64,000 nucleotides of DNA from a virus. Both the position numbers and the translations under genes were made by a program. Under the pieces are notes generated by a model. That model was not told the DNA's origin. It did not search any database and saw nothing but the letters and a program-made list of their open reading frames with translations. Every line of letters starts with the position of its first letter. Positions within the stretch are counted from its first letter, which is position 1. This document shows positions 11,004 through 58,604 of this stretch, piece by piece. The stretch is from positions 1 to 64,000 of IMG/VR virus record IMGVR_UViG_3300045988_108221. One strand, given 5' to 3'.

Positions 11004-11422
11004 TAGTTATTCCTTTCTTGACGGAAACCACAATAGAACAATGGTTGCCAATAACTGCGTTTAAATACAGCAGATAGAGACTGATTGGTAACACAAGGAA
11101 CTTGCATCGCCAGTATTTGTCCATTTTGTAGATATACCCCTGTGTGTAAATCTCCGTCAACATTAAATACAACAACATCTCCATGTTGAAGATTGTCCGC
11201 ATCTCTGACTTTATCGAAATGTTTCAATAAATATCGCAAGAGTCTCATTTGATGGTTCTTGTGAAAATCTTCACAGGACACAGGGTCTTTCTTCCCATCG
11301 TCAAAACAATGTGTATATCCATGGTCTTTATACCACATACGGCATATGTCAGCACAATGGTATTGACCTTTGGTTTTATCAAAGCCATATTTCAAGCCAA
11401 GGTATTTTGTTATGTCTTCCAT
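11003..11422 (-). CDS. Tail-associated NlpC/P60 cysteine peptidase (gpK-like)
   Basis: Candidate catalytic Cys (YHCADICRMWY) and His (GDLHTGVY) with P60-like spacing. First gene after the tape measure. Confidence 0.6.
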   Translation of the reverse strand: MEDITKYLGLKYGFDKTKGQYHCADICRMWYKDHGYTHCFDDGKKDPVSCEDFHKNHQMRLLRYLLKHFDKVRDADNLQHGDVVVFNVDGDLHTGVYLQNGQILAMQVPCVTNQSLSAVFKRSYWQPLFYCGFRQERNN

Positions 11423-26166: not shown

Positions 26167-26206
26167 ATAAGTAGAAATCATGGAAACACACAGGAGGAAA
26201 CATATC

Positions 26207-26737
26207 ATGGCTAATACAACAGAACCAATTAGAAATCTATCAAAAGTCCAAGAAATGAAACAAGCACTAGGGAATGACCGAGATAAAATGTTGTTCACTC
26301 TTGGCATTAACTCTGGTCTCCGCATCAGCGACCTTGTCGGTCTCACAGTCGATGATGTTAAACCAGAGATGGAATTGTATGAACAAAAGACAGGTAAGTT
26401 CAAACGGTTTATGTTATCTAAAGAGGTCTACGCATTGTTATGCGAATACGCAAGCCGATGCAAGCATTGGTTATTTCCAAGTCGCTCTGGTGACGGACAT
26501 ATCTCGACCGTACAAGCGTGGAGGAAAATCAAAGCTGCATCCGTGAAATGTGGTTTAGATAACATCGGTACGCACTCGATGCGTAAAACATTTGGATACC
26601 ATGCGTATCGCAAAGGTGTACCGATTGCGTACCTTATGCAAGTCTTTAATCATTCCTCGGAAGCAATCACAATGCGATACATTGGTATCACAACAGAGGA
26701 ATTAAATACTAAAGTGTATGCCATTATGGCTTTATAA
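26207..26737 (+). CDS. Small tyrosine recombinase (catalytic domain only, FimB/FimE-sized)
   Basis: Candidate catalytic residues: R (GLRISDL), H-x-x-R (THSMRKTF), and H...Y (NHSSEAITMRYI). Start moved to the ATG behind AGGAGGAAACATATC. 176 aa, with no N-terminal arm/core-binding domain. Confidence 0.8.
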   Translation: MANTTEPIRNLSKVQEMKQALGNDRDKMLFTLGINSGLRISDLVGLTVDDVKPEMELYEQKTGKFKRFMLSKEVYALLCEYASRCKHWLFPSRSGDGHISTVQAWRKIKAASVKCGLDNIGTHSMRKTFGYHAYRKGVPIAYLMQVFNHSSEAITMRYIGITTEELNTKVYAIMAL

Positions 26738-26752
26738 CAGGAGGAATCACTT

Positions 26753-27007
26753 ATGATTGCAATTATTTTATTATTACTATTGGTTACCGCAGTTAGTCTT
26801 GCGATTGCATTGGTTGTCGGATGGGTAACATCTCCACGCACCGCAGGTATTCTGTATATTGTTGTCGCTGGCATGTATGGAGCATCCACCGTAAGCAATA
26901 TCGCTGACGGAACTGTCAAGTTTGGTGACTCTTGGTTGGCTTTTGCAATTTGTGCAATTTTTGTCTACCTTGGATTGCGATTTATTGCTGAGTTCCCAGA
27001 GTATTAA
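26753..27007 (+). CDS. Small integral membrane protein (3 TM)
   Basis: SD ACAGGAGGAATCACTT-ATG. Hydrophobic throughout. Co-transcribed with the recombinase. Confidence 0.65.
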   Translation: MIAIILLLLLVTAVSLAIALVVGWVTSPRTAGILYIVVAGMYGASTVSNIADGTVKFGDSWLAFAICAIFVYLGLRFIAEFPEY

Positions 27008-27022
27008 TCACAAAGTCTTTTA

Positions 27023-27072
27023 AAGGGCATACATAGGTTTATATCTTAGGATATATTCTTATGTATGCCCTT
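27023..27072 (+). terminator. Intrinsic terminator of the plus-strand operon
   Basis: AAGGGCATACAT ... ATGTATGCCCTT stem followed by TTTTG. Confidence 0.7.
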
Positions 27073-27181
27073 TTTGTGTTTCTTGGGTTACATCTGTATG
27101 TTTCATTTGTAGTCTCACACGTATGTTAACAGGTTTGGTCTCAAACACAATATCTGACTATAAGGCAAACACGTTAGTGTT

Positions 27182-27268
27182 TATTGTCGAAGACAATCTT
27201 ATAGGTTTAATACTTATGTATTCTTTAGAGTATTCCTTATAGATTGCTTCGCAATATTCCTTACGGAA
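27182..27268. repeat. Three short palindromes in ORF-free DNA
   Basis: ATTGTC-gaa-GACAAT, ATTGC-ttc-GCAAT and ATTCC-ttac-GGAAT. Surrounded by reiterated CTTATAG, TTTCTTAA and CTTTCAA words. Confidence 0.6.
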
Positions 27269-27381
27269 TGTCTTTCAAGTCGGTTTCTTAAGTTTGGGGT
27301 AAAACCTTTTTCAAAAGCTGTTTCTTAAAACTCTTTCAAGAACGCACTTGCTTTCAAACCATAAGTTAAAACTCTCTCTAC

Positions 27382-27410
27382 TTATAGGGTAAAACATTTG
27401 ATTTTTGTAA
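27382..27410 (-). promoter_or_regulatory. Orphan promoter-like element pointing toward the recombinase operon
   Basis: On the minus strand: AAAAAAGTG-TTACAA, 17-18 nt spacer, (C)TATAAG. The A-tract plus TTACAA box recurs upstream of terL (~25447-25483). Confidence 0.35.
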
Positions 27411-27591
27411 CACTTTTTTCTTAAAATTGGATAAATATTTTATTTTACATGGTAAAATTTACCCCTCAAAAATGCCACTCAGCTCAGTAAATATCTGTGT
27501 TTCAAGACTTGAAAAAATTTTTTCCAGTTTATGAGTAAAAAATGCCCCATAAGTCTTAAATCTATAAAATGCGATACAGGATTTTTAACTC

Positions 27592-27886
27592 GCATGGTAC
27601 TAGGCTGGTGTCACACTCCTATGGTAGTGCTTGGGTTGGACGGCATCTGACCCACATGGGATAAAATCGAACGAATGTACGTTGGTAAACACAACCATAG
27701 TATCGTGATGAATTTTCACAAGCACAACACTAGGGTCGTGATTTTGGATGGAAAATAGTTTGGCTGCGGCCTGTAGTTAGTCTGACTAAAAATAAAGCAA
27801 TCACCATCCTATGATGGTGATTAACTATGTTGAAAAATATTGTCCAAACGATACACAGTCCTAGTATTGCATCTCCCTAGTACCAT
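27592..27886. repeat. ~295-bp segment bounded by a perfect 12-bp inverted repeat
   Basis: CATGGTACTAGG (27592-27603) and CCTAGTACCATG (27875-27886). ACTAGG occurs 7 times within 27597-28402. Confidence 0.6.
27798..27821 (-). terminator. Intrinsic terminator inside the IR-bounded segment
   Basis: AATCACCATC-atag-GATGGTGATT followed by GCTTTATTTTT on the minus strand. Confidence 0.55.
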
Positions 27887-28018
27887 GTCACAAACTTATA
27901 ATAACGCTATACTAGGAAAACATACATCAAAAAACATAATCATCATACTAGGGTTTACATATTATAGAAAATCATAAGTTACCTTGTATGCAACCCTAAA
28001 AATTTCTACAAAAATTTT

Positions 28019-28145
28019 AAACGATTGTATATTCGATAGACAACTCAAATTGGAAAATACGATTGTTCCATATGATGTTTCATATCTTAGACAATCTATT
28101 GAAACGATTGTTTTATCGATAGTATTTGCGATTGTTTTCTACATA
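28019..28145. repeat. Iteron-like repeats (A)CGATTGT ... TCGATAG
   Basis: AAACGATTGTATATTCGATAG and AAACGATTGTTTTATCGATAG about 90 bp apart. Half copies at ~28068 and ~28137. Another copy at ~28868. Confidence 0.55.
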
Positions 28146-28367
28146 TGTTATGTGTTTAAATGTATGAAACCATAGATAAAACATGGGTTTGTAGACCATT
28201 GTATGGTGTGTTTTGTATATAGCCATTGTTTGTACTGGGGTATGTTTCTTATGTGTGGACTTAGGTATGCTCTTGGGTTTGTTATGATTATACCGCCCCC
28301 AGCTGAGAATGGTTCTCCCTTTTGGATATTGAAAATTTTCGATACGCTTAGGGGTGTCTCATTGGTT

Positions 28368-28391
28368 CATATGAACATATGTTCACATATG
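28368..28391. promoter_or_regulatory. Palindrome CATATGAACATATGTTCACATATG with a perfect GAAC-N4-GTTC core (Cheo/LexA-box-like)
   Basis: Core GAACATATGTTC at 28373-28384, preceded by AAAATTTTCGATA about 30 bp upstream. Confidence 0.5.
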
Positions 28392-28896
28392 CACCATACT
28401 AGGGTTAGTCAATCAATCGAATAGTATCAATGTAATAGAATATCTAATTGCTTACATTCATTATCACTTGTATTCTCAATATGTAGATGTCATATATTGA
28501 AAACTATCGATATATATGTTTGTACATAGAGTATTCGTTCATGTATCAACTAACGGTTTACAGTTGGGTAACATATGAGTAGATACTCATGTATGCACTA
28601 TATGCATTATACCTATGATTTTAAGTAATGTTTAATATTGGTCTTGGCTGGCGGTGGTTGTAAAATTGTATTTTACACAATGTTTTTTATTTGGGTACAT
28701 CAATAAGGGTTCAAAATTCTGTAGTATCACTCGCCTAAGTCAATGCCATTGTACACCCTACGTACACTACCAAAGTACAACCACATCACAATACAATACG
28801 TTTATACATCTGTTACATACATGAGTAATACATATGTATAAAACAAATAAAAATACAACGATATACAACGATTGTATATAACAGATATATTTACCG

Positions 28897-29000
28897 TTGT
28901 ATGCTCATTTGTATTCGTTGCATATGTTTATATTCGAACGAGATTAAACGCACCGTATAACTCAAATAAATCAATCGTTTATTCTCATTTAGTCGTGCGT
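28897..29000. repeat. Regulatory module copy D
   Basis: GTATGCTCATTT ... CCGTATAACTCAAATAAATCAAT ... TTCTCATTTAG aligns with copies at 29599-29836, 32590-32760, 33281-33470 and 34745-34790. Confidence 0.6.
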
Positions 29001-29026
29001 ATTGATAACGCCTGCGTTATGTGTAG

Positions 29027-29048
29027 CATATGAACATACGTTCATATG
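29027..29048. promoter_or_regulatory. Palindrome CATATGAACATACGTTCATATG with a perfect GAAC-N4-GTTC core
   Basis: Core GAACATACGTTC at 29032-29043. Confidence 0.5.
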
Positions 29049-29091
29049 TTATGTTTGTATGAATGGTTGTTTATATATTGAATATAAATAT

Positions 29092-29120
29092 AAGCGGTAC
29101 AGAAATGATCTGTACCGCTT
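29092..29120 (-). terminator. Intrinsic terminator after 29129..29389
   Basis: AAGCGGTACA-n9-TGTACCGCTT. Member of the recurring GCGGTA...TACCGC hairpin family. Confidence 0.55.
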
Positions 29121-29128
29121 GTTATTGT

Positions 29129-29389
29129 TTACATATAACATTCAACAAGACTTTGCACGGTATCTTTATTTACAGTATCAAGGCTATCCAAATATGTGCT
29201 ATTTGTATGTATAGCTATTAACTTATTTTTATAGCCTTTTTTACTAATAATTTTAAATCTAATTAAATAGTTCCATCCTTCCATATCGTTAAAATATAGG
29301 AATTTTACTGATGTACATTTAATGTTATCAATTAAATGTAGATTTCTTTGTAAAAAGTCAAATAATGCATTATATGTATATGTTTTCAT
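29129..29389 (-). CDS. Hypothetical protein (AT-rich island)
   Basis: Start moved to MKTYTYNALF behind AAGGGGTTATTAAA. Confidence 0.5.
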   Translation of the reverse strand: MKTYTYNALFDFLQRNLHLIDNIKCTSVKFLYFNDMEGWNYLIRFKIISKKGYKNKLIAIHTNSTYLDSLDTVNKDTVQSLVECYM

Positions 29390-29406
29390 TTTAATAACCC
29401 CTTTTC

Positions 29407-29598
29407 TTAACATTCCCAATAATCAACAATATCATTATGGGCAGTAATTAAATCAATCATGTGAAAATATAAATATTCTTTTGAACATTCCCATAACTCA
29501 TTAGAATTATTATTAATAGTTGCCACATCATGAGCGTGATTTATTGCATAATCGATGTACACCATGGATATATACGTTATGAGACTGCCAAAATACAT
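29407..29598 (-). CDS. Hypothetical protein (AT-rich island)
   Basis: 63-aa ORF directly downstream of module A. Confidence 0.4.
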   Translation of the reverse strand: MYFGSLITYISMVYIDYAINHAHDVATINNNSNELWECSKEYLYFHMIDLITAHNDIVDYWEC

Positions 29599-29836
29599 AT
29601 GGTCTAAAAACGCTATATTTGCTTTCTAAGGCGTTTTATATGTTTTACATACAATCATAAGCGAATGTTTTTACACGCACCCTATAGCGTAAAATAACGA
29701 ATGTTTTATTGAGAAATGTTCTCAAAATATATGGATGCCTACGCTGGTGTTCTCATTTAGGATTTCTAATTGAGAATTGCTGCTTAAGGTGTACACGCAA
29801 GAAAAAGCGGTATCTATAAGGATACCGCCGTATAAA
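29599..29836. repeat. Regulatory module copy A
   Basis: Contains TTGAGAA-atg-TTCTCA and TTCTCATTT-n9-AATTGAGAA palindromes, CATACAATCATAAG, and the terminator hairpin of the upstream gene. Confidence 0.65.
29807..29828 (-). terminator. Intrinsic terminator after 29837..30148
   Basis: GCGGTATC-cttata-GATACCGC followed by TTTTTC on the minus strand. Confidence 0.7.
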
Positions 29837-30148
29837 CTATAATTCATTTAGAGTGTTTTTGTAAACCGTGTATAATTCATGTTCAAGGAACGGCAACCAT
29901 CTCCATTTATCCGCTTTGTCTAAAATCCTTTCATTGATAAACACAATTTCAGATATAACATAAGCACGATAATTCATAGTATTTTCGTGTTCCTCTTTTA
30001 CCCTACTAGGGTTATAACCGTAACACTCGGCATCTCGTAAGAAATTTAATAATTTACCTTTATCTTTTGTAGGCTTGCCACTTGTAGCATAATTAGATAC
30101 TACGTTCAATATAGCTTTTTTCGTGTATTCGTTTTTGATAGTAAACAT
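29837..30148 (-). CDS. Hypothetical protein (AT-rich island)
   Basis: 103-aa ORF. No motif recognised. Confidence 0.55.
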   Translation of the reverse strand: MFTIKNEYTKKAILNVVSNYATSGKPTKDKGKLLNFLRDAECYGYNPSRVKEEHENTMNYRAYVISEIVFINERILDKADKWRWLPFLEHELYTVYKNTLNEL

Positions 30149-30178
30149 TATTATATTACCTCTTTTTATTCCTTTCGT

Positions 30179-30568
30179 TTATACGATATAACTACTTGCA
30201 ACGGCGAGCCGTTCGCCGTCAATCATAATCTGAACACCTTTATATAAGTTAATAGGTAGTAAATATCTTTGATGTGTATAACTATAAATATGCTCGTTTT
30301 CATAAATCAAAAATTGCCCTTGATTATTCTGTAATTTAACTTTATATAAATCAAACTTGATATAATACCGCCGTAAAACACGATTATTTTTATCAAGTAA
30401 GATATAAAACTCTTTGCCTTCGCTATCACATGGATAATAAGTGATAGCGTTATCTATTTTATATAGTGTACCATTGTTATATAATCGGTTGCGTTTTTCT
30501 ATTGTGATAGGTTTAAACTCTACCCACTTTAAACCATAATACACTTTTATGTTTTCTACTGTTTTCAT
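30179..30568 (-). CDS. Hypothetical protein (AT-rich island)
   Basis: 129-aa ORF with SD GGAGGGAACAC-ATG. Confidence 0.55.
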   Translation of the reverse strand: MKTVENIKVYYGLKWVEFKPITIEKRNRLYNNGTLYKIDNAITYYPCDSEGKEFYILLDKNNRVLRRYYIKFDLYKVKLQNNQGQFLIYENEHIYSYTHQRYLLPINLYKGVQIMIDGERLAVASSYIV

Positions 30569-30650
30569 GTGTTCCCTCCGATGTGATCACTTATGATTAT
30601 ATTCCACGGTTAAACACAAACGGTATAACCGTGGTTAAAAAATTCTTATG

Positions 30651-30719
30651 TTATAATGTTTGATTGTTTTTCGTGCGTTGAATAAACACGATAATTAAAC
30701 TTAATAAAACTAAAGCCAT
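30651..30719 (-). CDS. Possible 22-aa hydrophobic peptide
   Basis: AAAGGGGAACATATTTAT-ATG. Translation MALVLLSLIIVFIQRTKNNQTL. Confidence 0.25.
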   Translation of the reverse strand: MALVLLSLIIVFIQRTKNNQTL

Positions 30720-30751
30720 ATAAATATGTTCCCCTTTCGATTGATAAGCAA

Positions 30752-31054
30752 CTATAGATATAACTCATCAAGATAATATAGCAAATCAAGATATCTATTG
30801 AGAGACTTTATAAAGTCATTCAAATTGTTGTATTCCTTATGTGTTCCCTTAACAGTAATAAAACAATAATTATTACCTTGCACAAATATATGTATATCGT
30901 AGTCATGATATAATAACGTATGTATTTTATCGTATTCTACATAGCTATAAAACATATAACTTTCTGCATATGTGATAATTTCATAATCTTTTGACATATC
31001 AAATATAAATGCATTTAGGTTTATAATCTTATGTATATTATCTTTTGTTTTCAT
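30752..31054 (-). CDS. Hypothetical protein (AT-rich island)
   Basis: 100-aa ORF with SD AGGGGTGAAAAT-ATG. Confidence 0.55.
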   Translation of the reverse strand: MKTKDNIHKIINLNAFIFDMSKDYEIITYAESYMFYSYVEYDKIHTLLYHDYDIHIFVQGNNYCFITVKGTHKEYNNLNDFIKSLNRYLDLLYYLDELYL

Positions 31055-31064
31055 ATTTTCACCC

Positions 31065-31424
31065 CTAACAATAAACTACAAATGGACTATACATATCTGT
31101 GTATGCAACACATGATTCACAACAAATATTTCTAAATGTTTTTTCATAGTCAATCGATATCCAATACGGTAAATCACCATATAAACCACTTTCATAAAAA
31201 TATAAGTCTATATAATTATAAATATCTGTATAATACCAACAATCACCATTTTTAATATATTCGCTTGACTCGTCAATATTCAAATCTTGACTTAAAATGT
31301 CAAGCATATCCATTTCATATTCTGAAAATTCGTTGATACACTCAAGAAAATCATGCAATCCATCAAGTGTTCCTAACTCGTTTTTATATTGTCGTGCATA
31401 TTGTAACAATGTTATAAATTCCAT
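31065..31424 (-). CDS. ArdA-like antirestriction protein (C-terminal domains only)
   Basis: Very acidic. ESGLYGDLPYWISIDYEKTFRN aligns by eye with the ArdA(Tn916) segment ETGALGEVPASLQNYIDYQAYGRD. Confidence 0.45.
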   Translation of the reverse strand: MEFITLLQYARQYKNELGTLDGLHDFLECINEFSEYEMDMLDILSQDLNIDESSEYIKNGDCWYYTDIYNYIDLYFYESGLYGDLPYWISIDYEKTFRNICCESCVAYTDMYSPFVVYC

Positions 31425-31435
31425 GTTGTACCTCT

Positions 31436-32020
31436 TTAACCGTTAATTTCTGTAATAAGTCCGATATCTTCACCGTCAATAGTAAAATAGTATTGACTAC
31501 AATAATTTATTAATTCCTTTGTATCTAATAAGTCATTATGGTTATTATGATAATGTTCTATAATTAATTCTATATCTTTATCAAAATCATAAAAACTTTG
31601 TTGTAATTTTCTCCATTCGTTCGCAAGTTGTAAACATTCGCTATCAGATAATAAAAGATAATTCTCTAACTTAAAGCCGTTAACATCAAATATTTGATAT
31701 TTTACGTTTTCGCCGTTTATGTCTGCATTAGGTAAAACAAAACGAATAAGCAATGATAATTTTTTATTATCGTTTATAAACATTTCTAAAGCATCACCAT
31801 AATAGCTATATTTATAAAGACATTGATAATGAGTAGTAATATTATATTCTTTTTCTTGTACATTAGATAATAATATCATATCAATAAGTTCGTCAATCAT
31901 TCCATTATGAATGATATTATCAAGCATATTTTTCTTTATTTTATTTTGTACATCAATAGATAATTCATTATATTCATATATATTAATTGTCTTTGTTTCT
32001 GTTTTTGTAATTGTTTTCAT
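31436..32020 (-). CDS. Hypothetical protein (AT-rich island)
   Basis: Start moved to the ATG (MKTITKTE) behind AAGAGGTTAAA. Contains an IYEYNELS motif of the kind seen in conjugative-element leading-region proteins (my recollection only). Confidence 0.5.
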   Translation of the reverse strand: MKTITKTETKTINIYEYNELSIDVQNKIKKNMLDNIIHNGMIDELIDMILLSNVQEKEYNITTHYQCLYKYSYYGDALEMFINDNKKLSLLIRFVLPNADINGENVKYQIFDVNGFKLENYLLLSDSECLQLANEWRKLQQSFYDFDKDIELIIEHYHNNHNDLLDTKELINYCSQYYFTIDGEDIGLITEING

Positions 32021-32021
32021 T

Positions 32022-32288
32022 TTAACCTCTTTCAATAATCATATATAATTCTTCATTATTTACTTTTTCAATGTGTAACGGCGAAAATTTTCGAATAAAT
32101 CTATTTAAGTATTTAGATGTGGTATGAGAATATTTTTCTCTATCTTGATACATTACATCATTTTTACTATCATATACGGCAATCAAAGTATTATAACTTT
32201 GAAAAGCTGTTAGATTTAAACAGATATTAATAATAAATTGATTGGGAACCGTGTTACCCTTACTACTTAACATATTTTGTACTAACAT
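32022..32288 (-). CDS. Hypothetical protein (AT-rich island)
   Basis: 88-aa ORF. Its ATG overlaps the stop of the 39-aa ORF (ATGTTAG). Confidence 0.55.
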   Translation of the reverse strand: MLVQNMLSSKGNTVPNQFIINICLNLTAFQSYNTLIAVYDSKNDVMYQDREKYSHTTSKYLNRFIRKFSPLHIEKVNNEELYMIIERG

Positions 32289-32401
32289 AATTTTTGCCCT
32301 TTCATTCGTTCCAATACGGTATATACTCTATTCATACCGTACACCATAGCCACAGTAAACACCATAGCCAAAACATTTTTTAAAATCATAGATAATTCCA
32401 T
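32282..32401 (-). CDS. Small membrane peptide (39 aa)
   Basis: AAAGGGTGTAGCCT-ATG. Translation MELSMILKNVLAMVFTVAMVYGMNRVYTVLERMKGQKLC. Translationally coupled to the next ORF. Confidence 0.4.
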   Translation of the reverse strand: MELSMILKNVLAMVFTVAMVYGMNRVYTVLERMKGQKLC

Positions 32402-32439
32402 AGGCTACACCCTTTCGATTAAATATATAACCTTTTCTA

Positions 32440-32545
32440 TGGTCTTATTGTACCGCTTAGTAGGTGCAATGTACAATAGTTTTTATCTATGGTTGCCATA
32501 GTTTTAAGCTATGGCGGTACACCATTGAATACCGCTATACAATAG
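32440..32545 (-). promoter_or_regulatory. Promoter/operator module P1 of the island operon
   Basis: On the minus strand: TTGTAC, 18-nt spacer, TACAAT. Upstream CCATAG-n7-CTATGG-n3-CCATAG palindromes. Homologous to 33990-34110. Confidence 0.45.
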
Positions 32546-32589
32546 ATATATATAAATACCACAAAAACACGAATTTGTCAAATTTTAGC

Positions 32590-32760
32590 AAAAACCAAGC
32601 GTAAATGAGAATGTCTCTCAATAAAACGTTTAAATATTTGCGTTCTAAGGTCTGTCTAAAGTCTCCGCCTTATGATTGTATGCAAAAAGTCAAAAACGCC
32701 GTACAACGCAAATAAATCAATTCTAGAGGTATTGTCTAAATGAGAATGACGGTGGTATCT
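32590..32760. repeat. Regulatory module copy B (partly inverted relative to A and C)
   Basis: CTTATGATTGTATG (32669-32682) is the reverse complement of CATACAATCATAAG in A. CCGTACAACGCAAATAAATCAAT is direct relative to C and D. Confidence 0.6.
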
Positions 32761-32952
32761 TTTGTATGCATACATAAGTTATGAATTTGTTTGTCTACAA
32801 TAGACACCGTTGTATATCGAATGTTTTCTATATGTTATTAACAAATATAATCATTATTGACTAATAGCTAAAATTTTCGATATGGTTTACGCAGGCGGTG
32901 GTCGTGCAATATGGTTGTATGCAATCGAATTTCACGCAACGGTTTTTCATCT

Positions 32953-33095
32953 GAATATATGTTCATATGTTCACACATCGGTTATATGAATAAGTTTTCA
33001 TATGAACATACATTCATTTGAAAACATATGAATATATGCTCATGTATTCATTTATTGAACACATGAAAGTATGTTCAATTATTCATATGTTATAA
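32953..33095. repeat. Cluster of degenerate TGAA(C/T)ATATG(T/C)TCA palindromes
   Basis: GAATATATGTTC, GAACATACATTC and GAATATATGCTC, plus TTCATATG words. No perfect GAAC-N4-GTTC here. Confidence 0.5.
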
Positions 33096-33280
33096 TCGGT
33101 TGTATGCAATTTAATTGTGGTATCTCGCAGGATTTACCGTATTGAGAATATTTCTCATTTAAGCTGCGGTATATTGTGATGTCTTCTATAGGCGTACACA
33201 TTCATATGTTTTGTACATAAAAACAAACAAACGCAAAAACACGCAAAAAGTCATATATCATAAAATCGTGTATTTTCGCT

Positions 33281-33470
33281 TGTATGCTCGTTTAGGTGTT
33301 TTATGTACAATCATAAACGGAACATCTGAAAACTGCCGTATAACTCAAATAACGCAACTTTTATTTGAGAACAATTATCAAATACGCTGGCTTTTCTCAT
33401 TTGTAGTATCTAATTGAGAATACGATGGTAAAACAAAAGGCGGTATACCTTAAGTATACCGCCAATGGTT
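33281..33470. repeat. Regulatory module copy C
   Basis: By-eye alignment with module A shows many shared blocks: GTACAATCATAA, CCGTATAACTCAAATAA, TTGAGAA/TTCTCATTT/TTGAGAA, and a terminal GGCGGTATAC hairpin. Confidence 0.65.
33439..33463 (-). terminator. Intrinsic terminator
   Basis: GGCGGTATAC-ttaag-GTATACCGCC followed by TTTTGTTTT on the minus strand. Confidence 0.7.
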
Positions 33471-33571
33471 TATAGGTCTTCTAGTCCCTCTTCTAAGTCT
33501 TTTTTATAATCTTCATCTACGTTATCAAGTAGCGCCTTAATATATTCTTGTTCAACGATAAAATAAAACAT
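33470..33571 (-). CDS. Small acidic protein (33 aa)
   Basis: ACGGAGGATGATCAACTT-ATG. Translation MFYFIVEQEYIKALLDNVDEDYKKDLEEGLEDL. Confidence 0.35.
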   Translation of the reverse strand: MFYFIVEQEYIKALLDNVDEDYKKDLEEGLEDL

Positions 33572-33612
33572 AAGTTGATCATCCTCCGTTATTATTAAGT
33601 GCTTAAAGCGTT

Positions 33613-33632
33613 GGCGGTACATAAGTACCGCC
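33613..33632 (-). terminator. Hairpin after 33641..33934 (weak terminator)
   Basis: GGCGGTAC-ttat-GTACCGCC with no clear T tract. Confidence 0.35.
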
Positions 33633-33640
33633 GTTAGTGT

Positions 33641-33934
33641 TTATCTGAGTGGCTTTTCATCGTGTAGTATGATTTTGGCAACTCGCCAATTATATTGGCT
33701 TAAGTTTACCATGTATTCACTACCGCTTTTTGTACTACCGATTAGGCTTGAATGTTTTTCGCCATCAAAATAATCACAAATTGTGGTGGTTTGATAGATA
33801 CGCTCATTCAATGGATACACTTTAGACCAATTAGATTTACTATATTCAATCTCAATCAAATAAGGCTTTTTTAATAAATATCTGTGTTCCTCTAGGTAGT
33901 CAACTAATTTTGATAAACTAGAAAATTCTTTCAT
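33641..33934 (-). CDS. Hypothetical protein
   Basis: Start moved to MKEFSSLSKL behind AAAGGGGTAAAACTC. Confidence 0.55.
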   Translation of the reverse strand: MKEFSSLSKLVDYLEEHRYLLKKPYLIEIEYSKSNWSKVYPLNERIYQTTTICDYFDGEKHSSLIGSTKSGSEYMVNLSQYNWRVAKIILHDEKPLR

Positions 33935-33989
33935 GAGTTTTACCCCTTTCAATATAAAATTATAAAAGACCTACGAAAGACATTTATCA

Positions 33990-34110
33990 TCTTTCGTTAC
34001 ACTCATTATACACCTAGAGGGGCAATCTGCATAATAGAAAAAATCTATGGATAGTCATAACTTTAAGCTATGGCGGATAACCGCACTCCGCAGGATTTAT
34101 CCATACAATT
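33990..34110 (-). promoter_or_regulatory. Promoter/operator module P2 (homolog of P1)
   Basis: Extended -10 TGTATAAT on the minus strand. ATCTATGG..CATAACTTTAAGCTATGGCGG is shared with P1. 5'UTR hairpin ACGAAAGA-n9-TCTTTCGT. Confidence 0.45.
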
Positions 34111-34139
34111 CTATTGTGTACAACTGAATTTTACGCCGT

Positions 34140-34260
34140 CATATGAATATGTGCTCATATGTTCATGTATCGTTACATGAATGTCTGTTCATATGAACAA
34201 CTGTTCAGATGACAACACATGAACGAATGTTCATATGTTCAAACGCTCATATGATTGAAT
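34140..34260. promoter_or_regulatory. Cluster of TGAACA/TGTTCA palindromes with two perfect GAAC-N4-GTTC cores
   Basis: GAACAACTGTTC (34195-34206) and GAACGAATGTTC (34221-34232), plus several half sites. Confidence 0.5.
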
Positions 34261-34569
34261 ACAATCGAATTGCATGAGACTATATCGAAAGTTTTCACGC
34301 TTTAATCATCTAAAGTATTCGAACTGATTGAAAAAATTCGATTAGTTGCAGGATTTTCGATATACTGCACATCGAAAATTTTCGACCTTTAGTATACTAA
34401 AGTTTTCGATTAGATGGAAAATTTTGAATATATTAAAGTGAACAAATGTTCGCTGGTTGCAGGCGGTCTCGCAGGTCGTGGCGAGCACATGGGCGGTCAA
34501 TATGTAATGCCTTGAAAAAACACACATATGTATTAATATATGAGCGTATATATGTATAAAAATAGGGGT

Positions 34570-35200
34570 GAGATATATATGTATATATACATATATAAAA
34601 TACCGTGGACATATACATATAAATATATACAAATGTAAAAATCCGTGGACAATATCATATATATAAACAATAAAAACCACCGCAGAATTGATTTAAATCG
34701 TTTATACGGTGTGTTTATATCCACGGTGGTATATTTGTATACCACATATGTGAAAACCACCGTACAATGCAAATAAATGAATTTCATGAGATGATGTGGT
34801 CGTATGAACATATGTTCAATCATGGGTATTGCCACGTGGTATCATGGAAGATTAAAAACAAACAAATGTTCGGTTGTTTTTCTCTTAGGCAGCATCCGTG
34901 GTTCGTCAATAGAATACCCCATGAACACACCATAATACACACCAATAGATAAACACATATATCATCGACACATATATACGTTTGTTTAATACCACGATAT
35001 ATATAAATAAAAAAATACCACCGCATAAAACGTGGACACATAACGAACGTATAATGTATAAGCAATATATGCTGCGGATGCACGATTGTTTCATGCAGGT
35101 GTTCGCCATGATTTTTATGCTGTGGTATTTATAATAGACAACAGGTAGTACACGCATAAATGTTAGCTGTATTTAAAATGGTGGTATGATTACCTGTGTG
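34570..35200. repeat. AT-rich iteron field, candidate replication origin
   Basis: (TA)n-like runs plus at least 12 copies of ATACCAC(C/G)G / CCGTGGAC / GGTGGTAT words in both orientations (for example 34601-34610, 34641-34650, 34721-34730). Confidence 0.4.
34806..34817. promoter_or_regulatory. Perfect GAACATATGTTC box
   Basis: Lies within TATGAACATATGTTCAAT inside the iteron field. Confidence 0.45.
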
Positions 35201-43867: not shown

Positions 43868-44224
43868 TTACACCTGCTTTCTGCGATACTCAGTAATAGT
43901 TGTAAGTTCTGGGTACACTTCATACCACTCAAAATCAAATCTTTCGATGGTGTGAATGTCTTCTGAGAATTGCAAACAATGGTATTTATTTGTTTGAACA
44001 TTGTGATAAATCTCTTTATGAACTAAGTGTTCGCCACCAAAGACTTCTTTTTCTTTAACCAACTCATAGTTGCCAAAAGAACAAAACACAATGTTTTCAA
44101 CAATTTCAGTAATATATTGGTTTGGGTTTTCCAACCAATGAATACATACTAAGTCCATATCTTCGATAGACAAACCGTCAACACCATAGTCTGCGTAATG
44201 TTGTAACGCTTGCTCAGTTGTCAT
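43868..44224 (-). CDS. Hypothetical early protein
   Basis: SD ACAGGAGGAAACAA-ATG. Confidence 0.6.
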   Translation of the reverse strand: MTTEQALQHYADYGVDGLSIEDMDLVCIHWLENPNQYITEIVENIVFCSFGNYELVKEKEVFGGEHLVHKEIYHNVQTNKYHCLQFSEDIHTIERFDFEWYEVYPELTTITEYRRKQV

Positions 44225-44915
44225 TTGTTTCCTCCTGTGTATTTAAAATCCGTTGCTTGGCAACATCGAAGTATAATGGGTCTAACTCAATACCAATGAA
44301 ATCTCGACCCAACTCAACGGCTGCAACACCTGTTGTACCAGAACCCATAAATGGGTCAACAATAGTATATTCCTGTGGCAGAATACCTACGATGTTTTTC
44401 ATTACTTGTAATGGCATCTGACATGGATGCACAGTTTTTTCTGCTGAGGTATTCTTAACGATATTAATATTCCACCAATCGTAAATCGGTGTGCCTTTAG
44501 AACCATTTGCTATTAGCTGTTTAATTCGTTTATCATTTGGGTTTTTGTACGGTTGTAACACTTGCTTGAAATCAGGCATTACACCAAAGAACGCAATATC
44601 ACGATGTTGCTTGCGATTGTTTGTGTTATATACCCATGATACTACACGAGTTGGTGGCATGTCAATATCAATCGCAAGCTGATACAACTGTTCTGGATAG
44701 TGAATAACCACGGATGGATGCGATGGAGAAAATACCATAGATAACATATATCGGTATGCATCATCATCCATTTTATCGTGGTATTTGTCGTAATGATACC
44801 CAATGTTGAACGGAGGGTCTGACACGATGATGTACGGCTTGCTTTCTTCTTGCAGTTGGGTTTCTATTGATTGTAATATGTTTCGACAATCGTTGTGGTA
44901 TAAATCAATCTTCAT
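44214..44915 (-). CDS. DNA methyltransferase, beta-class amino-MTase (N6-adenine or N4-cytosine)
   Basis: Motif IV SDPPF precedes motif I FMGSGTTGVAA. Start moved to MKIDLYHNDC behind GAGGAAGACT. Confidence 0.8.
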   Translation of the reverse strand: MKIDLYHNDCRNILQSIETQLQEESKPYIIVSDPPFNIGYHYDKYHDKMDDDAYRYMLSMVFSPSHPSVVIHYPEQLYQLAIDIDMPPTRVVSWVYNTNNRKQHRDIAFFGVMPDFKQVLQPYKNPNDKRIKQLIANGSKGTPIYDWWNINIVKNTSAEKTVHPCQMPLQVMKNIVGILPQEYTIVDPFMGSGTTGVAAVELGRDFIGIELDPLYFDVAKQRILNTQEETNDN

Positions 44916-45303
44916 AGTCTTCCTCAAATAACATTTTTGCGATTTCTTCGTCATAACTGAAGCCAAGTAGTCGCAGGATACTATCTTTATCCTTTTCAGT
45001 AAATGCTCTGTGACCGTTCAATTTCAAAGACATATTTGTGAGACTCATCCCAATTCTTGATGCAGCCTTGCTGACACTTAAATTTCGGTCTTTTAACATA
45101 CCTCGTAACATTGTATATCGCTCTTGGTATCGTGTTCCAATGTCTACTTTGAGTCGTGCGAGATATGTTTTGACATCTTCAATATCTTTAAAAGTGTCGT
45201 CTTCTAACACCTTTTGCAATTTTGACAGTAACACCGATGTTTCTTCAAACTTTTTGTAATCTTCTTCAATGACGATACCATTAATTCTTACATGTGTTTT
45301 CAT
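44905..45303 (-). CDS. XRE-type HTH DNA-binding protein
   Basis: Start moved to MKTHVRING behind TTGGAGGAATAT. C-terminal HTH LSVSKAASRIGMSLTNMSLKLNG. Confidence 0.55.
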   Translation of the reverse strand: MKTHVRINGIVIEEDYKKFEETSVLLSKLQKVLEDDTFKDIEDVKTYLARLKVDIGTRYQERYTMLRGMLKDRNLSVSKAASRIGMSLTNMSLKLNGHRAFTEKDKDSILRLLGFSYDEEIAKMLFEEDYED

Positions 45304-45321
45304 ATATTCCTCCAATAATTT

Positions 45322-45340
45322 GGGGCGGAAGAACCGCCCC
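45322..45340 (-). terminator. Intrinsic terminator directly after the adhesin gene
   Basis: GGGGCGG-ttctt-CCGCCCC followed by AAATTATT. Confidence 0.55.
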
Positions 45341-45348
45341 ATTTATTA

Positions 45349-46779
45349 TTATTTACTTAATAGATTTTCTAGCATTTCTACACGCTCTTTTAAGTCTTTT
45401 AACTCATCTCGTTTAACATTCGTTGTTTTACCAACTTTAAAGTTAACAGATGCATTAGTCACCTTGGCAGAGCCAAAAGATTGTCCAACGTAGAACATTA
45501 CATTTTCATTCGGAGCGTAGAACGCACCCAATGCACCAGCGTTTGCATTTTTGTAATGACCGAAGCCAGCACTAAAAGACAGTTTGTTGTTCACATCGAA
45601 ACCATCCCAATGTAATGCACTCAAGGCAGATACAGATGCAATCGCTTTGTTTGTGCCACGTTCTAATTGATTGATTTTATTATCGAAGTTACCAAACATT
45701 TGTTGACTTTGATTTTCCAAAGTAATAATTCGGTTTTCATGGTTCATAGACAATTGTTTTAACGCTGAAATATCGCCTGTGTGAGCGTTTTGGATGTCTC
45801 GTAATGTATTTACTTGTGCACTAACATTTGTGATGGATTGATGGTTCTCATTAATTAATGCGGTATTAGAACGAATGTCTGCTGTATTGGTTCGCACTTG
45901 TTTTTGGGTTTCGACAATCGCATCTGCATTAGTGGCTACATATGTATGCAACTCATCAATGGCATCTTTGTTTGTTTTGATGTTGATTCCATTAGTATTG
46001 ATTTCATCAATAGCTGCATGCAACTGAGAACCATTGACTGCATCTATAGAGTCAGAATCAATACGTCCAGCGGCTACATTCGTAATAGTTCGTTCCTTGC
46101 CTGTGTCGCCAATAGATATAGTACCTGCTGGGACAACACCAGCAAATGTATGCGTTTTGCCATTAATTACGGAAGAAGAAGTACCAATTACTACACTAGC
46201 TTTCGCATTATGTCCGATTGCTACGGATTCATCTTGGGTTACAGAAGCATCGTTACCAATAGCAATACCATAGTTAGCATGGTTGATTGTGCTAGATTTG
46301 CCTAAAATAATTCCGTGATAACTGTCTTGTAGTATATTTCTATTGCCAAGCAATACATCGCCTGTAGAGTTGCCTGTGTGATTTTCCACATTATTAAAAG
46401 CACCGATTAGAACAGAATCCTTTGTAGCACCATGGTTAATATTGCCAATGTTAACTGCATCATTCCCATCTGTAGTAAGTCCATAACCAATAGCTATGGA
46501 GGTCGTACTATTGGCATGAACTCCATTACCGATAGCAATAGTATTAATATTGTGTGCACCAACTCCATTGCCGATTGCGATGGCATTTGTGTTAGCAGTA
46601 ACACCGTTGCCAAGACCAATGCTATTATTGCTTGTGTTGATTACTCCGTTACCAACTGCAACACTATTATCTTGAGCAGCAATAACACCATTGCCAAACT
46701 CCACTGGGTTTGCAAACACGCCCATAGTTGCCATTGCTAATACTGCGGATAAAATTGTTGTTTTCATTTTGTTGTTCAT
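45349..46779 (-). CDS. Trimeric autotransporter adhesin (YadA-like: head, neck, stalk, anchor)
   Basis: Signal peptide, many N.(S/A)IAIGNG head repeats, neck ERTITNVAAGRIDSDSIDAVNGSQL, heptad stalk, anchor AIASVSALSAL..SAGFGHYKNANAGALGAFY..NFKVG, and a 26-aa coiled tail. Confidence 0.85.
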   Translation of the reverse strand: MNNKMKTTILSAVLAMATMGVFANPVEFGNGVIAAQDNSVAVGNGVINTSNNSIGLGNGVTANTNAIAIGNGVGAHNINTIAIGNGVHANSTTSIAIGYGLTTDGNDAVNIGNINHGATKDSVLIGAFNNVENHTGNSTGDVLLGNRNILQDSYHGIILGKSSTINHANYGIAIGNDASVTQDESVAIGHNAKASVVIGTSSSVINGKTHTFAGVVPAGTISIGDTGKERTITNVAAGRIDSDSIDAVNGSQLHAAIDEINTNGINIKTNKDAIDELHTYVATNADAIVETQKQVRTNTADIRSNTALINENHQSITNVSAQVNTLRDIQNAHTGDISALKQLSMNHENRIITLENQSQQMFGNFDNKINQLERGTNKAIASVSALSALHWDGFDVNNKLSFSAGFGHYKNANAGALGAFYAPNENVMFYVGQSFGSAKVTNASVNFKVGKTTNVKRDELKDLKERVEMLENLLSK

Positions 46780-46800
46780 TGTGTTTCTCCTGTGTTTTAA

Positions 46801-47058
46801 TTACAAAGTTTTGTTTAATTGTTTAAAATAATCCAATACGTCTTCTTTTGTTTTCTTTTTAATTAGATTAATGTCCGTGGTTGTCCAATCGGCACTTGTG
46901 AGACACTTAGCATCAATAGATTTTAACCGTTTATGCCATTGGTCGGTACAAACGTAAATCACACCTCGTTTCATCCGTAGACATTGCGATGTGTTCCAAT
47001 GGTGTCTTCGAATGCCCTTGCCGTTTGACATCAATTCGTATGCTTCGTGGAATCGCAT
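46801..47058 (-). CDS. DUF2829-like small protein (Tad2-family candidate)
   Basis: MRFHEAYELMSNGKGIRRHHW ... LTSADW fits the M.F.EAL..L..GK...R..W......L..DW pattern of DUF2829 (my recollection). The internal start was chosen by eye. Confidence 0.45.
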   Translation of the reverse strand: MRFHEAYELMSNGKGIRRHHWNTSQCLRMKRGVIYVCTDQWHKRLKSIDAKCLTSADWTTTDINLIKKKTKEDVLDYFKQLNKTL

Positions 47059-47231
47059 TTGCAACTCTTCTCCTTTCTTGGGAATAAACATAAGACTACA
47101 ACACTTAATAGCATTGCCCCAAGCCATTCTTGGTTATTGAATATAAATGTTTGAATGAATGAACCACCCATCAGTAATAAACATGAGATGTCAATCATTC
47201 GTCTAATGTCAAGAATTAATTGTTTGTCCAT
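47031..47231 (-). CDS. Small membrane protein (2 TM)
   Basis: Strong SD ACAGGAGGAAGAAA-ATG. Overlaps both neighbouring ORFs. Confidence 0.5.
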   Translation of the reverse strand: MDKQLILDIRRMIDISCLLLMGGSFIQTFIFNNQEWLGAMLLSVVVLCLFPRKEKSCKCDSTKHTN

Positions 47232-47541
47232 TTTCTTCCTCCTGTTGCTTTAATTCTTTACGACCAATCTTTTGTAAAAATTTCCATGCTCTAAACATTG
47301 ACACATAATCAAGGTTTATGTATGTACGGTTCTTTGGATGCTTTGGACAAGCCAAGTATATCCAATGTTCATCTGCTGACCGCAAGTGCTGAAGTATTGG
47401 TATTGGCTTTGTTTTGCACTTATAACAGCCATCTGTTTTTTGACACCTGTCTAACACATCGTCAAACCCATCGCCATAATCAATGAAATACTCTCGTTTT
47501 TTCGGTAGCTTGCGACCACCGCCAAATCCTGTACTTGCCAT
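47209..47541 (-). CDS. Hypothetical Cys-rich protein, first gene after a promoter
   Basis: SD AGCAGGTGAGAT-ATG. Contains C.KTDGCYKC...ACPKH. Confidence 0.55.
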   Translation of the reverse strand: MASTGFGGGRKLPKKREYFIDYGDGFDDVLDRCQKTDGCYKCKTKPIPILQHLRSADEHWIYLACPKHPKNRTYINLDYVSMFRAWKFLQKIGRKELKQQEEENGQTINS

Positions 47542-47563: not shown

Positions 47564-47592
47564 ATAATACCATATAAATATACTTATGTCAA
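47564..47592 (-). promoter_or_regulatory. Sigma70-type promoter
   Basis: TTGACA, 17-nt spacer, TATTAT on the minus strand. Confidence 0.65.
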
Positions 47593-47636
47593 TAACTTAT
47601 TTTTAATAAGTGTAAGATTTTTACATATAAAAAAAA

Positions 47637-47657
47637 GAGACCAACTATGTGGTCTCT
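47637..47657 (-). terminator. Intrinsic terminator
   Basis: AGAGACCA-catag-TTGGTCTCT followed by TTTTTTTT on the minus strand. Confidence 0.8.
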
Positions 47658-47663
47658 TATGTA

Positions 47664-55400: not shown

Positions 55401-55490
55401 TGGAGGAAAGTGTGGGATTTGAACCCACGGAACATTTCTGTTCGACAGTTTTCAAGACTGTTGCATTAAACCAAACTCTGCCAACTTTCC
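55401..55490 (-). tRNA. tRNA-Ser (anticodon UGA), CCA encoded
   Basis: Hand-folded: GGAAAGT acceptor, ACAGT-CTTGAAA-ACTGT anticodon arm, long variable arm GAACA-gaaa-TGTTC, T arm GTGGG-TTCAAAT-CCCAC, 3' TCCA. Confidence 0.8.
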
Positions 55491-55587: not shown

Positions 55588-55679
55588 TGGAGGATGGTAC
55601 AGGATTTGAACCTGTGGTCGTTTTAATGAACGACATCTCTTTAGCAAAGAGACTCAATAAACCACTCTGACAACCACCC
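55588..55679 (-). tRNA. tRNA-Ser (anticodon GCU), CCA encoded
   Basis: Hand-folded: GGGTGGT acceptor (one G-U pair), TCTCT-TTGCTAA-AGAGA anticodon arm, variable arm GTCGTT-cattaa-AACGAC, T arm ACAGG-TTCAAAT-CCTGT. Confidence 0.8.
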
Positions 55680-57815: not shown

Positions 57816-58604
57816 TTATATCTTCGCACAGGTTTCAAATTGTTCATCAGTAAACCCCTGTAATCGCCAAAACTCCCTTGGGGTCAACTTGCGTATTACA
57901 TTAGGATTTTTCGACAATAAAATCTTTGGTTCAATACCACCACCCTTGACACACGTCAAAGTCGGTGATAAGCCATGTGGTGAATATATACGACCTCGTT
58001 GTGGATTGCCACCAAAAGATGTTGTCTTGATTATATTTCCGACTTGAATAATAGATTGTTCGCTTTGGTCTGGTCGGTATAATACTTCGGATGGACATTC
58101 GTTTCCAAGGTGTCCGATAACGAACAACCTTTCACGGTTTTGCGGAAGTCCAAAGTCTTTTGTGTTGTACACACGCCATGCGATACTGTACCCTGCTTTG
58201 TCCATTTCAGACAAAACGCCGTAAAATCCCCATCCGTTATCAATTGACAAGAGGTTTTTAACATTCTCAATAAGCAACCATTTGGGTTTATGTTTTGTTT
58301 CATTCAATAACCTCGTGACTTCGTAAAATAAACCGCTTCGTGTGTTTCCCATGCCGTCTTTCAGTCCAGCAATGGAAACATCTTGACATGGGAAACCGAA
58401 GCACCATAAGTCTGCATACGGCATCTCTGTACCGTTTAATGCACGAACATCTGGTGAAAACCAAAGATTATCCGTTGGGTATAACGCACGGTATGATTCT
58501 TGTGCGTATTTATCTTGTTCGCACCAACCAACGCACTTCATGCCAGCCTTGGTTAAGCCATAATGAAAACCGCCAATGCCAGCGAATAAATCAATGAATT
58601 TCAT
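57816..58604 (-). CDS. DNA (cytosine-5)-methyltransferase
   Basis: Motifs I FAGIGGF, IV GFPCQDVS, VI ENVKNL, VIII QNRERLF and X LTPREFWRLQGF. Confidence 0.9.
   Translation of the reverse strand: MKFIDLFAGIGGFHYGLTKAGMKCVGWCEQDKYAQESYRALYPTDNLWFSPDVRALNGTEMPYADLWCFGFPCQDVSIAGLKDGMGNTRSGLFYEVTRLLNETKHKPKWLLIENVKNLLSIDNGWGFYGVLSEMDKAGYSIAWRVYNTKDFGLPQNRERLFVIGHLGNECPSEVLYRPDQSEQSIIQVGNIIKTTSFGGNPQRGRIYSPHGLSPTLTCVKGGGIEPKILLSKNPNVIRKLTPREFWRLQGFTDEQFETCAKI

Follow-up and report, generated by a model that had tools for sequence, protein, structure and literature searches.

Why should a bacteriophage with no sign of host integration carry a gene for a bacterial adhesin? The question is raised by the 64,000-nucleotide stretch analysed here, positions 1 to 64,000 of the IMG/VR virus record IMGVR_UViG_3300045988_108221 (hereafter the window), in which an open reading frame (ORF) at 45349..46779 on the minus strand, starting with ATG, encodes a protein of 476 amino acids (aa). 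The product is a complete trimeric autotransporter adhesin (TAA), a protein of type Vc secretion. A sequence-only reading of the same DNA had already described it as such; the ORF it pointed to is real, although the lower boundary it gave, 45322, takes in a hairpin downstream of the gene, and the ORF itself ends at 45349. An adhesin gene in a phage of this kind is unusual. We hold it to be moderately probable that the gene belongs to an accessory cassette of an apparently non-integrating phage of Veillonella or a close relative among the Negativicutes, and that it encodes a functional Veillonella-type TAA displayed on infected cells.

All parts of a TAA were found in the protein, i.e., signal peptide, head repeats, neck, stalk, four-strand YadA anchor and a heptad helix behind the anchor, so the earlier claim of completeness stands. 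The Sec signal peptide (residues 1-23; 46711..46779, minus strand, as all features of the gene) was recognised by inspection and hydropathy; it consists of the n-region MNNKMK and a hydrophobic core of 16 residues, with cleavage between VFA and NP, and no lipobox was seen on inspection of the TAA N-terminus. The head (residues 24-228; 46096..46710), designated type A, is built of 13 left-handed beta-roll-type repeats of about 14 residues each, where about 20 had been counted before. These repeats are visible even though the Pfam YadA_head model (PF05658) scored 22.2 bits, slightly below the cutoff of 25. The neck, or YadA_stalk motif (residues 229-262; 45994..46095), was detected by Pfam PF05662 over residues 231-274 with 40.9 bits (gathering cutoff 28.4), and its string ERTITNVAAGRIDSDSIDAVNGSQL, residues 229-253, contains most of the invariant columns (R230...L253). 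It is followed by a coiled-coil stalk (residues 263-385; 45625..45993) with a helical length of approximately 135 aa. The membrane anchor (residues 386-447; 45439..45624) comprises the end of the in-barrel helix and four beta-strands. Its detection by profile search had been set beforehand as a test of the interpretation, and Pfam YadA_anchor (PF03895) matched residues 397-447 with 34.1 bits (gathering cutoff 22.7). The NCBIfam models YadA, Ata, EmaA and BimA all matched the TAA, and sequence matches in the PDB included the head and neck structures 4usx, 3la9 and UspA1, as well as the YadA anchor structure 2lme. In the AlphaFold2 (AF2) monomer model, short beta-strand repeats at residues 26-211 are followed by a single continuous helix at 250-387 (pLDDT 86-91), by exactly four anchor strands (400-409, 412-421, 427-435 and 441-447) and by a terminal helix at 457-475, the confidence of the tail being low. 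Since a signal peptide, a barrel anchor and a periplasmic tail occur together, the predicted location in the outer membrane appears to be the only reasonable one, which would exclude a role in the virion.

Beyond F447 the polypeptide continues for 29 residues, KVGKTTNVKRDELKDLKERVEMLENLLSK (residues 448-476; 45352..45438), predicted to form a periplasmic domain of a short linker and a helix of about three heptads; the string KTTNVKRDELKDLKERVEMLENLLSK corresponds to residues 451-476. The heptad a and d positions are occupied by L460, L463, V467, L470 and L474, and 14 of the 29 residues are charged. In a tblastn comparison the alignment with YadA covered residues 1-448 at approximately 25% identity. 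YadA ends at the equivalent of residues 447/448, so the last 29 residues are a true extension, and the charged heptad continuation of 26 residues noticed in the sequence-only reading is confirmed. That reading had also pointed to extra C-terminal domains in Veillonella TAAs, and correctly so (PMC7549365; bioRxiv 10.64898/2026.01.22.700529). Post-anchor coiled-coil or SLH domains are present in all Veillonella TAAs (PMC7549365), and of the Negativicutes TAAs 99.8% have a periplasmic domain (Dorison et al. 2026, bioRxiv 10.64898/2026.01.22.700529). The latter work distinguishes long, peptidoglycan-binding domains from short ones, defined as extending more than 10 residues past the beta-barrel, shorter than 100 aa and mostly coiled coil. 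With 29 residues past F447, an a/d pattern and a predicted low-pLDDT helix, the tail described here falls within the short class. The extension is expected in the host clade because such domains are near-universal in Negativicutes TAAs; it is the norm there, neither an oddity nor new. Deletion of the periplasmic domain in V. parvula TAAs (VtaA) led to degradation of the adhesin while trimerisation and secretion were kept, and periplasmic domains co-evolve with their barrels (bioRxiv 10.64898/2026.01.22.700529). Both observations agree with anchor and tail having been inherited together here, with ratios of non-synonymous to synonymous substitution rates (dN/dS) of 0.04-0.09. Phages are mentioned neither in PMC7549365 nor in bioRxiv 10.64898/2026.01.22.700529. 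As a separate observation, PDB entries 9gh4/9gh5, a 489-aa "Cell surface protein", align with residues 367-461 of the TAA, i.e., the anchor and about 14 residues past it, and themselves run to residue 489. Judged by this alignment, the structure of a TAA extended past its anchor seems to have been solved in them, which might be used as a template.

The similarity searches suggest Veillonella, or a close Negativicutes relative, as the host. Among cellular proteins, the TAA had its best homologues in Veillonella, including WP_295285723.1 ("YadA-like family protein [Veillonella sp.]"). Among the GTDB species-representative genomes, four of the five matches to a host-type TAA (P0045) were metagenome-assembled genomes of Veillonella, and a scan of the same genomes with the window TAA itself gave no match. 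The nearest named relatives of the phage endolysin are from Negativicutes (Sporomusa, Propionispora). The post-anchor architecture, near-universal in Negativicutes, agrees with this host. That the gene points to a diderm host, as stated in the sequence-only reading, is supported. Our literature search found no paper describing a sequenced Veillonella phage. The window TAA has the same order of parts as the V. parvula Vta adhesins such as VtaA, and like them a post-anchor coil shorter than 100 aa (PMC7549365; bioRxiv 10.64898/2026.01.22.700529). When its type A head was compared with internal head segments of chromosomal Veillonella TAAs, themselves 630-830 aa long, the identity was 71-76% over 205 aa without gaps. 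In contrast, the anchor is only about 47% identical to theirs, and the 29-aa tail, at the short end of its class, has no detectable similarity to their tails. The window TAA further differs in being phage-encoded and, at 476 aa, much shorter than many host adhesins.

Among the proteins retrieved by the protein search, 92 were phage-type TAA homologues, 389-476 aa long and encoded on contigs of approximately 73 kb or less, and all of them terminate in NFK[VI]GKTTNVKRDELKDLKERVEMLENLLSK or a close variant. Within this set the identity to the window TAA was 74-100% for the signal peptide and 83-100% for the periplasmic tail, and 84-98% for the anchor. The heads fell into two types. Type A heads, as in the window, were 67-93% identical to the query, and type B heads, carried by most relatives, approximately 33%. 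The stalk varied mainly by insertions and deletions of 14, 49 or 56 residues, i.e., whole heptads. The phage family conserves the signal peptide, the anchor and the tail, and it is the head, or passenger, that is exchanged. Swaps of passenger domains are typical also of the V. parvula adhesin cluster (Bechon et al. 2020, PMC7549365), a likeness between the two. All modules of the TAA are under purifying selection, most strongly anchor and tail: dN/dS was approximately 0.06 in the anchor, 0.04-0.09 in the tail, 0.15-0.16 in the head and 0.28-0.33 in the stalk, at dS of 0.3-1.1. We had considered that all phage heads are copies of host heads, and this was dropped, the type B head being only 36-44% identical to its best host match. 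Since type B is without a close host counterpart, capture of a host head can be claimed for type A only.

Relatives of the locus were sampled in two ways, 26 IMG/VR loci by similarity to the TAA and 32 loci by an independent marker, a 280-aa exonuclease. In the window the TAA gene is the third of a trio, preceded by o110 (47209..47541, minus strand), which encodes a Cys-rich protein of 110 aa, and immediately upstream by o108 (46801..47127, minus strand), which encodes another small protein. The order o110-o108-TAA was constant in 26/26 TAA-selected loci, with varying genes downstream. Among the exonuclease-selected loci the TAA was present in 26 of 32, always at the same site, and cleanly absent from six. 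At the empty site (L047-L052) o108 abuts directly on o132, the gene found downstream of the TAA in the window (44905..45303, minus strand). A ribosome-binding site (RBS) of the AACACAGGAG type precedes o132 at the empty site; at the filled site this RBS serves the TAA (AGGAG, 46787..46791, minus strand, in a 21-nt intergenic gap), while a hairpin and a second RBS, GGAGG right past the hairpin, precede o132. The TAA gene is a presence/absence cassette at a fixed site, made up of the ORF, a 3' hairpin and a duplicated RBS. This cassette behaviour, together with the constant signal peptide, anchor and tail under strong purifying selection and the swapped heads, is what is new here. Shortened TAA genes occur in two IMG/VR relatives, as an in-frame ORF of 253 aa in L064 (10001-10759) and a 148-aa remnant ORF in L069, which suggests occasional decay or assembly errors.

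The GC-rich hairpin (45321..45341, minus strand) lies 7 nt past the TAA stop codon and has the form GGGGCGG-ttctt-CCGCCCC, with a folding energy of -19.7 kcal/mol including flanks (z = -4.6). It follows the TAA stop in 26/26 loci, with varied stem and loop sequences and whichever gene comes next, and is absent at the empty site. Next on the coding strand comes AAAUUAUU, a poor U-tract and not a U-run, and the RBS of o132 begins 8 nt further on, with RBS and ATG within 20 nt. Because of this tract, the hairpin is better regarded as a weak or leaky terminator, or as a stabiliser of the mRNA 3' end, than as a canonical terminator. No sigma-70-like site was found on the coding strand between 47564 and the TAA start codon, a region which includes the 21-nt gap, itself too short to hold a promoter. 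The nearest candidate promoter for o110-o108-TAA is a sigma-70/SigA-type site upstream of o110 (47564..47592, minus strand), with TTGACA, a 17-nt spacer and an extended -10 element, TG-n-TATTAT (TGgTATTAT), 11 of 12 positions matching. Further upstream, a terminator-like hairpin with a U-run (47635..47658, minus strand; a 9-bp stem followed by TTTTTTAT, -12.6 kcal/mol, z = -4.2) closes the preceding transcription unit after o153 and is conserved in the sub-lineage of the window. From this arrangement the TAA appears to be co-transcribed with o110 and o108. The description of the gene as a moron with its own hairpin therefore needs dividing: insertion as a clean cassette and a conserved 3' hairpin were found, an own promoter was not.

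The two upstream genes are not part of the cassette. o108 was kept in all 32 exonuclease-selected relatives, with or without TAA, at 35-90% identity, and matches Pfam PF11195 (Tad2-like/DUF2829) with 22.8 bits, below the gathering cutoff of 25. Tad2 is Thoeris anti-defence 2. o110 was syntenic in all 26 TAA-selected and all 32 exonuclease-selected loci and had no family match in profile searches. We also considered o108 and o110 as helpers of the TAA, in the manner of SadB or TpgA, and rejected this, since they are without signal peptides and are retained in TAA-less relatives.

The carrier is a siphovirus of approximately 68.7 kb with its own replication genes. Its structural genes in the window include a large terminase, a Mu-type portal, an SU10-like capsid protein, a tail tube, a J-like tail tip and an amidase endolysin; the replication and nucleotide-metabolism set comprises a DnaE-type polymerase with an intein, DnaG, DnaB, exonucleases, a dNMP kinase, RusA, dUTPase, ThyX and two methyltransferases. 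Assemblies made independently, of 68,727 and 68,656 bp, have their ends at different places, hence the map is circular or circularly permuted. The TAA gene lies in the early, replication-side block, approximately 35 kb from the tail module. The phage is distant from those in culture, its terminase being at most 36% identical to that of any cultured phage. In the GenBank phage collection neither a DNA match to the region nor a protein match to the anchor alone was found, and the only two matches of the full-length TAA protein were Salmonella genome contigs, i.e., no true phage. The plasmid collection gave only generic proteobacterial YadA-like matches of at most 33% identity, and no plasmid-prophage relative. 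Neither a full-length integrase nor a gene for a repressor, antirepressor, excisionase or partition protein was recognised in the phage. The protein database, IMG/VR and the metagenome collection together gave more than 100 related contigs, all of them approximately 72.8 kb or shorter and none with bacterial flanks, and among the matches listed no phage-type TAA cluster came from NCBI genomes. As no contig exceeds approximately 72.8 kb or has bacterial flanks, and no full-length integrase was recognised, the phage is apparently non-integrating; it could still be an episomal prophage.

A single recombinase gene was found (26180..26737, plus strand). It encodes a tyrosine recombinase of 185 aa (PF00589, 84.6 bits; phrog_216 "integrase", E = 2e-54) that consists of the catalytic domain without an N-terminal DNA-binding domain and whose best PDB matches are of the Xer type; its role may be integration, dimer resolution or inversion. 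Together with an 84-aa ORF (26753-27007, plus strand) it stands opposite in strand to nearly all other genes, between the terminase genes and a gene-poor stretch of low GC (27-31%) at 26800-35000. This stretch is dense in the palindrome CATATGAACATATGTTCATATG, with clusters at approximately 28368, 29027, 32948-33090, 34140-34260 and 34790. The window contains 8 copies of the core GAAC-N4-GTTC where 1.0 would be expected, six of the eight within 28.3-34.8 kb, and the core resembles the Firmicute LexA (Cheo) box. These palindromes could be operators of a phage regulator, operators of the host LexA, or origin iterons.

A mechanism can be proposed from these parts. In this lineage the TAA gene would probably be transcribed together with o110 and o108 from the host-type promoter, the precursor would be exported through the host Sec system, and the host BAM would assemble three four-strand anchors into a 12-strand barrel in the outer membrane. 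The C-terminal helices of 29 aa would remain periplasmic, where they would form a short coiled coil of three strands and guard the TAA from degradation as in host TAAs, while infected cells would display the passenger, i.e., the 13-repeat head, the neck and a stalk of approximately 20 nm, on their surface. The head of the window TAA was drawn from the host adhesin repertoire and should therefore bind the same ligand as the host adhesin. The likeliest benefit would be that infected cells are kept on kin cells or in the biofilm, so that progeny are released beside susceptible hosts; exclusion or conversion could be the benefit as well. The best-supported reading is thus of a predicted surface adhesin of the infected cell, or of a carrier cell, with an exchangeable specificity module that in the window is host-derived. 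More specifically, a virulent phage may display an adhesin with a host-copied head during the latent period and tether the doomed cell to kin or biofilm, with new hosts around it at the burst, keeping a private module for export and anchoring and exchanging heads with host adhesins while the repertoire of the host diversifies; this version we put forward tentatively, as possible but rather doubtful. Such a transmission-enhancing role as an "infected-cell adhesin" for lytic phages was not described in the literature searched.

Several results weigh against display of the TAA by a non-integrating phage. The recombinase, matching a PHROG integrase family, and the palindromes resembling LexA boxes are compatible with a lifestyle that is temperate or episomal. 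The gene is dispensable, as 6 of 32 relatives manage without it. The candidate promoter is a consensus match with its -35 and extended -10 elements conserved, at variable spacer, in about ten related loci of the sub-lineage of the window and absent in other lineages, and the region as a whole shows no enrichment of promoter-like sites (26 found, 30 expected). The type B head has no close cellular counterpart, its best matches being giant TAAs. Finally, trimer formation and surface display are considered here with an AF2 model that is a monomer of mean pLDDT 66.7 and pTM 0.36.

Among the alternatives, superinfection exclusion stands first, and we regard it as unlikely. According to this explanation the TAA forms a surface layer that masks the phage receptor, thereby blocking secondary adsorption and the loss of progeny on debris. 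T5 Llp and the Cor proteins would be functional analogues. A predicted outer-membrane protein made during infection would suit such a role, as would the position of the gene among early genes of the counter-defence type (the Tad2-like protein and the two methyltransferases), and the four TAA-less relatives with tail data all bear divergent tail fibres, which is compatible with a function linked to the receptor. However, head types A and B each occur with both types of J C-terminus and of fibre, so the exposed part of the TAA is not matched to the receptor-binding proteins of the virion, and receptor-linked explanations are weakened by this lack of co-variation. The known exclusion proteins are, to our knowledge, small lipoproteins or inner-membrane proteins and not fibres of 25 nm, and a head which resembles host adhesins and is under purifying selection suggests binding of a ligand rather than passive shielding. 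As to the four TAA-less genomes with tail loci (L078, L080, L083 and L101), their J C-termini are divergent, at 60-65% identity, and no homologue of the fibre C-terminal domain of the window was detectable in this small sample of about two lineages; they may have a different host range.

Lysogenic conversion, which the sequence-only reading had proposed, is quite unlikely. In this case a temperate phage would express the TAA from the prophage and give the lysogen traits of adhesion, biofilm formation or immune evasion, as the Eib proteins of Escherichia coli do. There is a precedent in EibD, listed as encoded by a temperate prophage (PMC8065619). In the window, the recombinase of the integrase family, the enrichment of palindromes in the adjacent low-GC region, which could be operators of a repressor or LexA, and the bracketing of the unit by a host-type promoter-like site and a 3' hairpin all point the same way. 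Against it stand the small size of the recombinase and its Xer-type matches, the lack of recognised genes for lysogeny, the upper size of the related contigs without bacterial flanks, the lack of phage-type clusters from NCBI genomes among the matches listed, and a full set of replication and nucleotide-metabolism genes typical of virulent phages. The evidence thus gives conversion no support.

It is very unlikely that the gene is hitch-hiking host DNA, recently captured, neutral or decaying and without benefit to the phage. The presence/absence polymorphism and the truncated copies in L064 and L069 could be read in this manner. Nevertheless, the gene occupies one site in most exonuclease-selected relatives across deep divergence (exonuclease identity 80-99%), dN/dS is 0.04-0.33 in every module, and the GC content of the TAA, 0.384, does not deviate from that of the genome, 0.394 +/- 0.018, by which a recent acquisition might have been recognised. 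The capture was not recent, since the phage family has a signal peptide, anchor and tail of its own, the anchor being only 47% identical to host anchors. That the TAA is a fibre of the virion tail serving as receptor-binding protein can hardly be correct, for although its head, neck and stalk modules look like trimeric phage fibres and PHROGs places the TAA-like phrog_17426 "adhesin" under "tail", virion assembly takes place in the cytoplasm and cannot be reconciled with a Sec signal peptide that is cleaved and an outer-membrane anchor followed by a periplasmic tail, the gene is far from the tail module and among early genes, it is cleanly absent from some relatives, and its head type is not linked to the tail-tip type.

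Display on infected cells, as preferred here, may be compared with other phage-borne and bacterial proteins of this kind. The nearest precedent for a TAA as a phage gene are the immunoglobulin-binding Eib TAAs of E. coli (EibA/C/D/E/F/G), which are prophage-encoded (PMC8065619) and, according to PMC13534694, mediate phenotypes of adhesion or aggregation. Like the TAA of the window they are short, of YadA size, and accessory to the phage. Unlike it, they have nothing behind the anchor and come from a proteobacterium, in which their prophages are temperate, while the window TAA has a periplasmic tail of the Terrabacteria type, a presumed diderm Firmicute host, and a phage without integrated copies found, with a gene set of the virulent type, an early-block position and passenger swapping. 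No relationship between the two was found at the sequence level beyond generic TAA motifs, and a literature search for phage-encoded TAAs beyond Eib gave nothing specific. YadA of Yersinia, the prototype of type Vc, is similar in size and layout, as seen also in the NCBIfam YadA match and the anchor alignment to 2lme, and differs in sequence and in ending at the anchor, 29 residues earlier. Lom and Bor of lambdoid phages are morons whose products enter the outer membrane of the host and change its adhesion or serum resistance (PMC8065619). The TAA shares with them the status of an accessory phage gene for an outer-membrane protein of the host; it differs in fold, Lom and Bor being a monomeric 8-strand barrel and a lipoprotein, and no dedicated promoter was found for it, while they are expressed from the prophage by promoters of their own.

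Veillonella, a human commensal, is abundant in oral and gut biofilms as a bridging organism; who sticks to whom is set by its adhesins. The TAA gene marks a widespread family of phages of approximately 65-72 kb, found in human-associated and other metagenomes, most members of which seem to carry a functional, selectively maintained adhesin whose binding head is exchanged; in one case the exchange is with adhesins of the host. Expression of the adhesin during lytic infection, if it occurs, would mean that phages need no lysogeny to reprogramme how cells in biofilms adhere to one another. The protein also offers a natural, minimal TAA of the Negativicutes type, and its module of barrel and periplasmic coil could be used to test why TAAs of Terrabacteria need the coil.

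Some further features of the genome were recorded. Of the two DNA methyltransferases, both probably with anti-restriction functions, one of the N6/N4 type (44214-44966, minus strand) lies just downstream of the TAA cassette, and the other, of the C5-cytosine type (57816-58604, minus strand), was recognised with 200 bits. The DnaE-type gene encodes a Pol III alpha with PHP, DNA_pol3_alpha and finger domains and an intein/HNH element; it occupies 24-1793 on the plus strand, continues outside the window (1317 aa in L007 and L010) and has a direction of transcription opposite to that of the remaining genome. Two tRNA-Ser genes, at 55401-55490 and 55588-55679 on the minus strand, with anticodons UGA and GCU, were called by both ARAGORN and Rfam, and a tRNA-Lys (UUU) at 32450-32524 on the plus strand, within the low-GC region, by ARAGORN only. 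A tape measure protein of 1659 aa (11505-16484, minus strand) contains a Phage_lysozyme2 domain and is followed by a small NlpC/P60-like protein (11003-11422, minus strand), thus the tail carries two peptidoglycan hydrolase activities.

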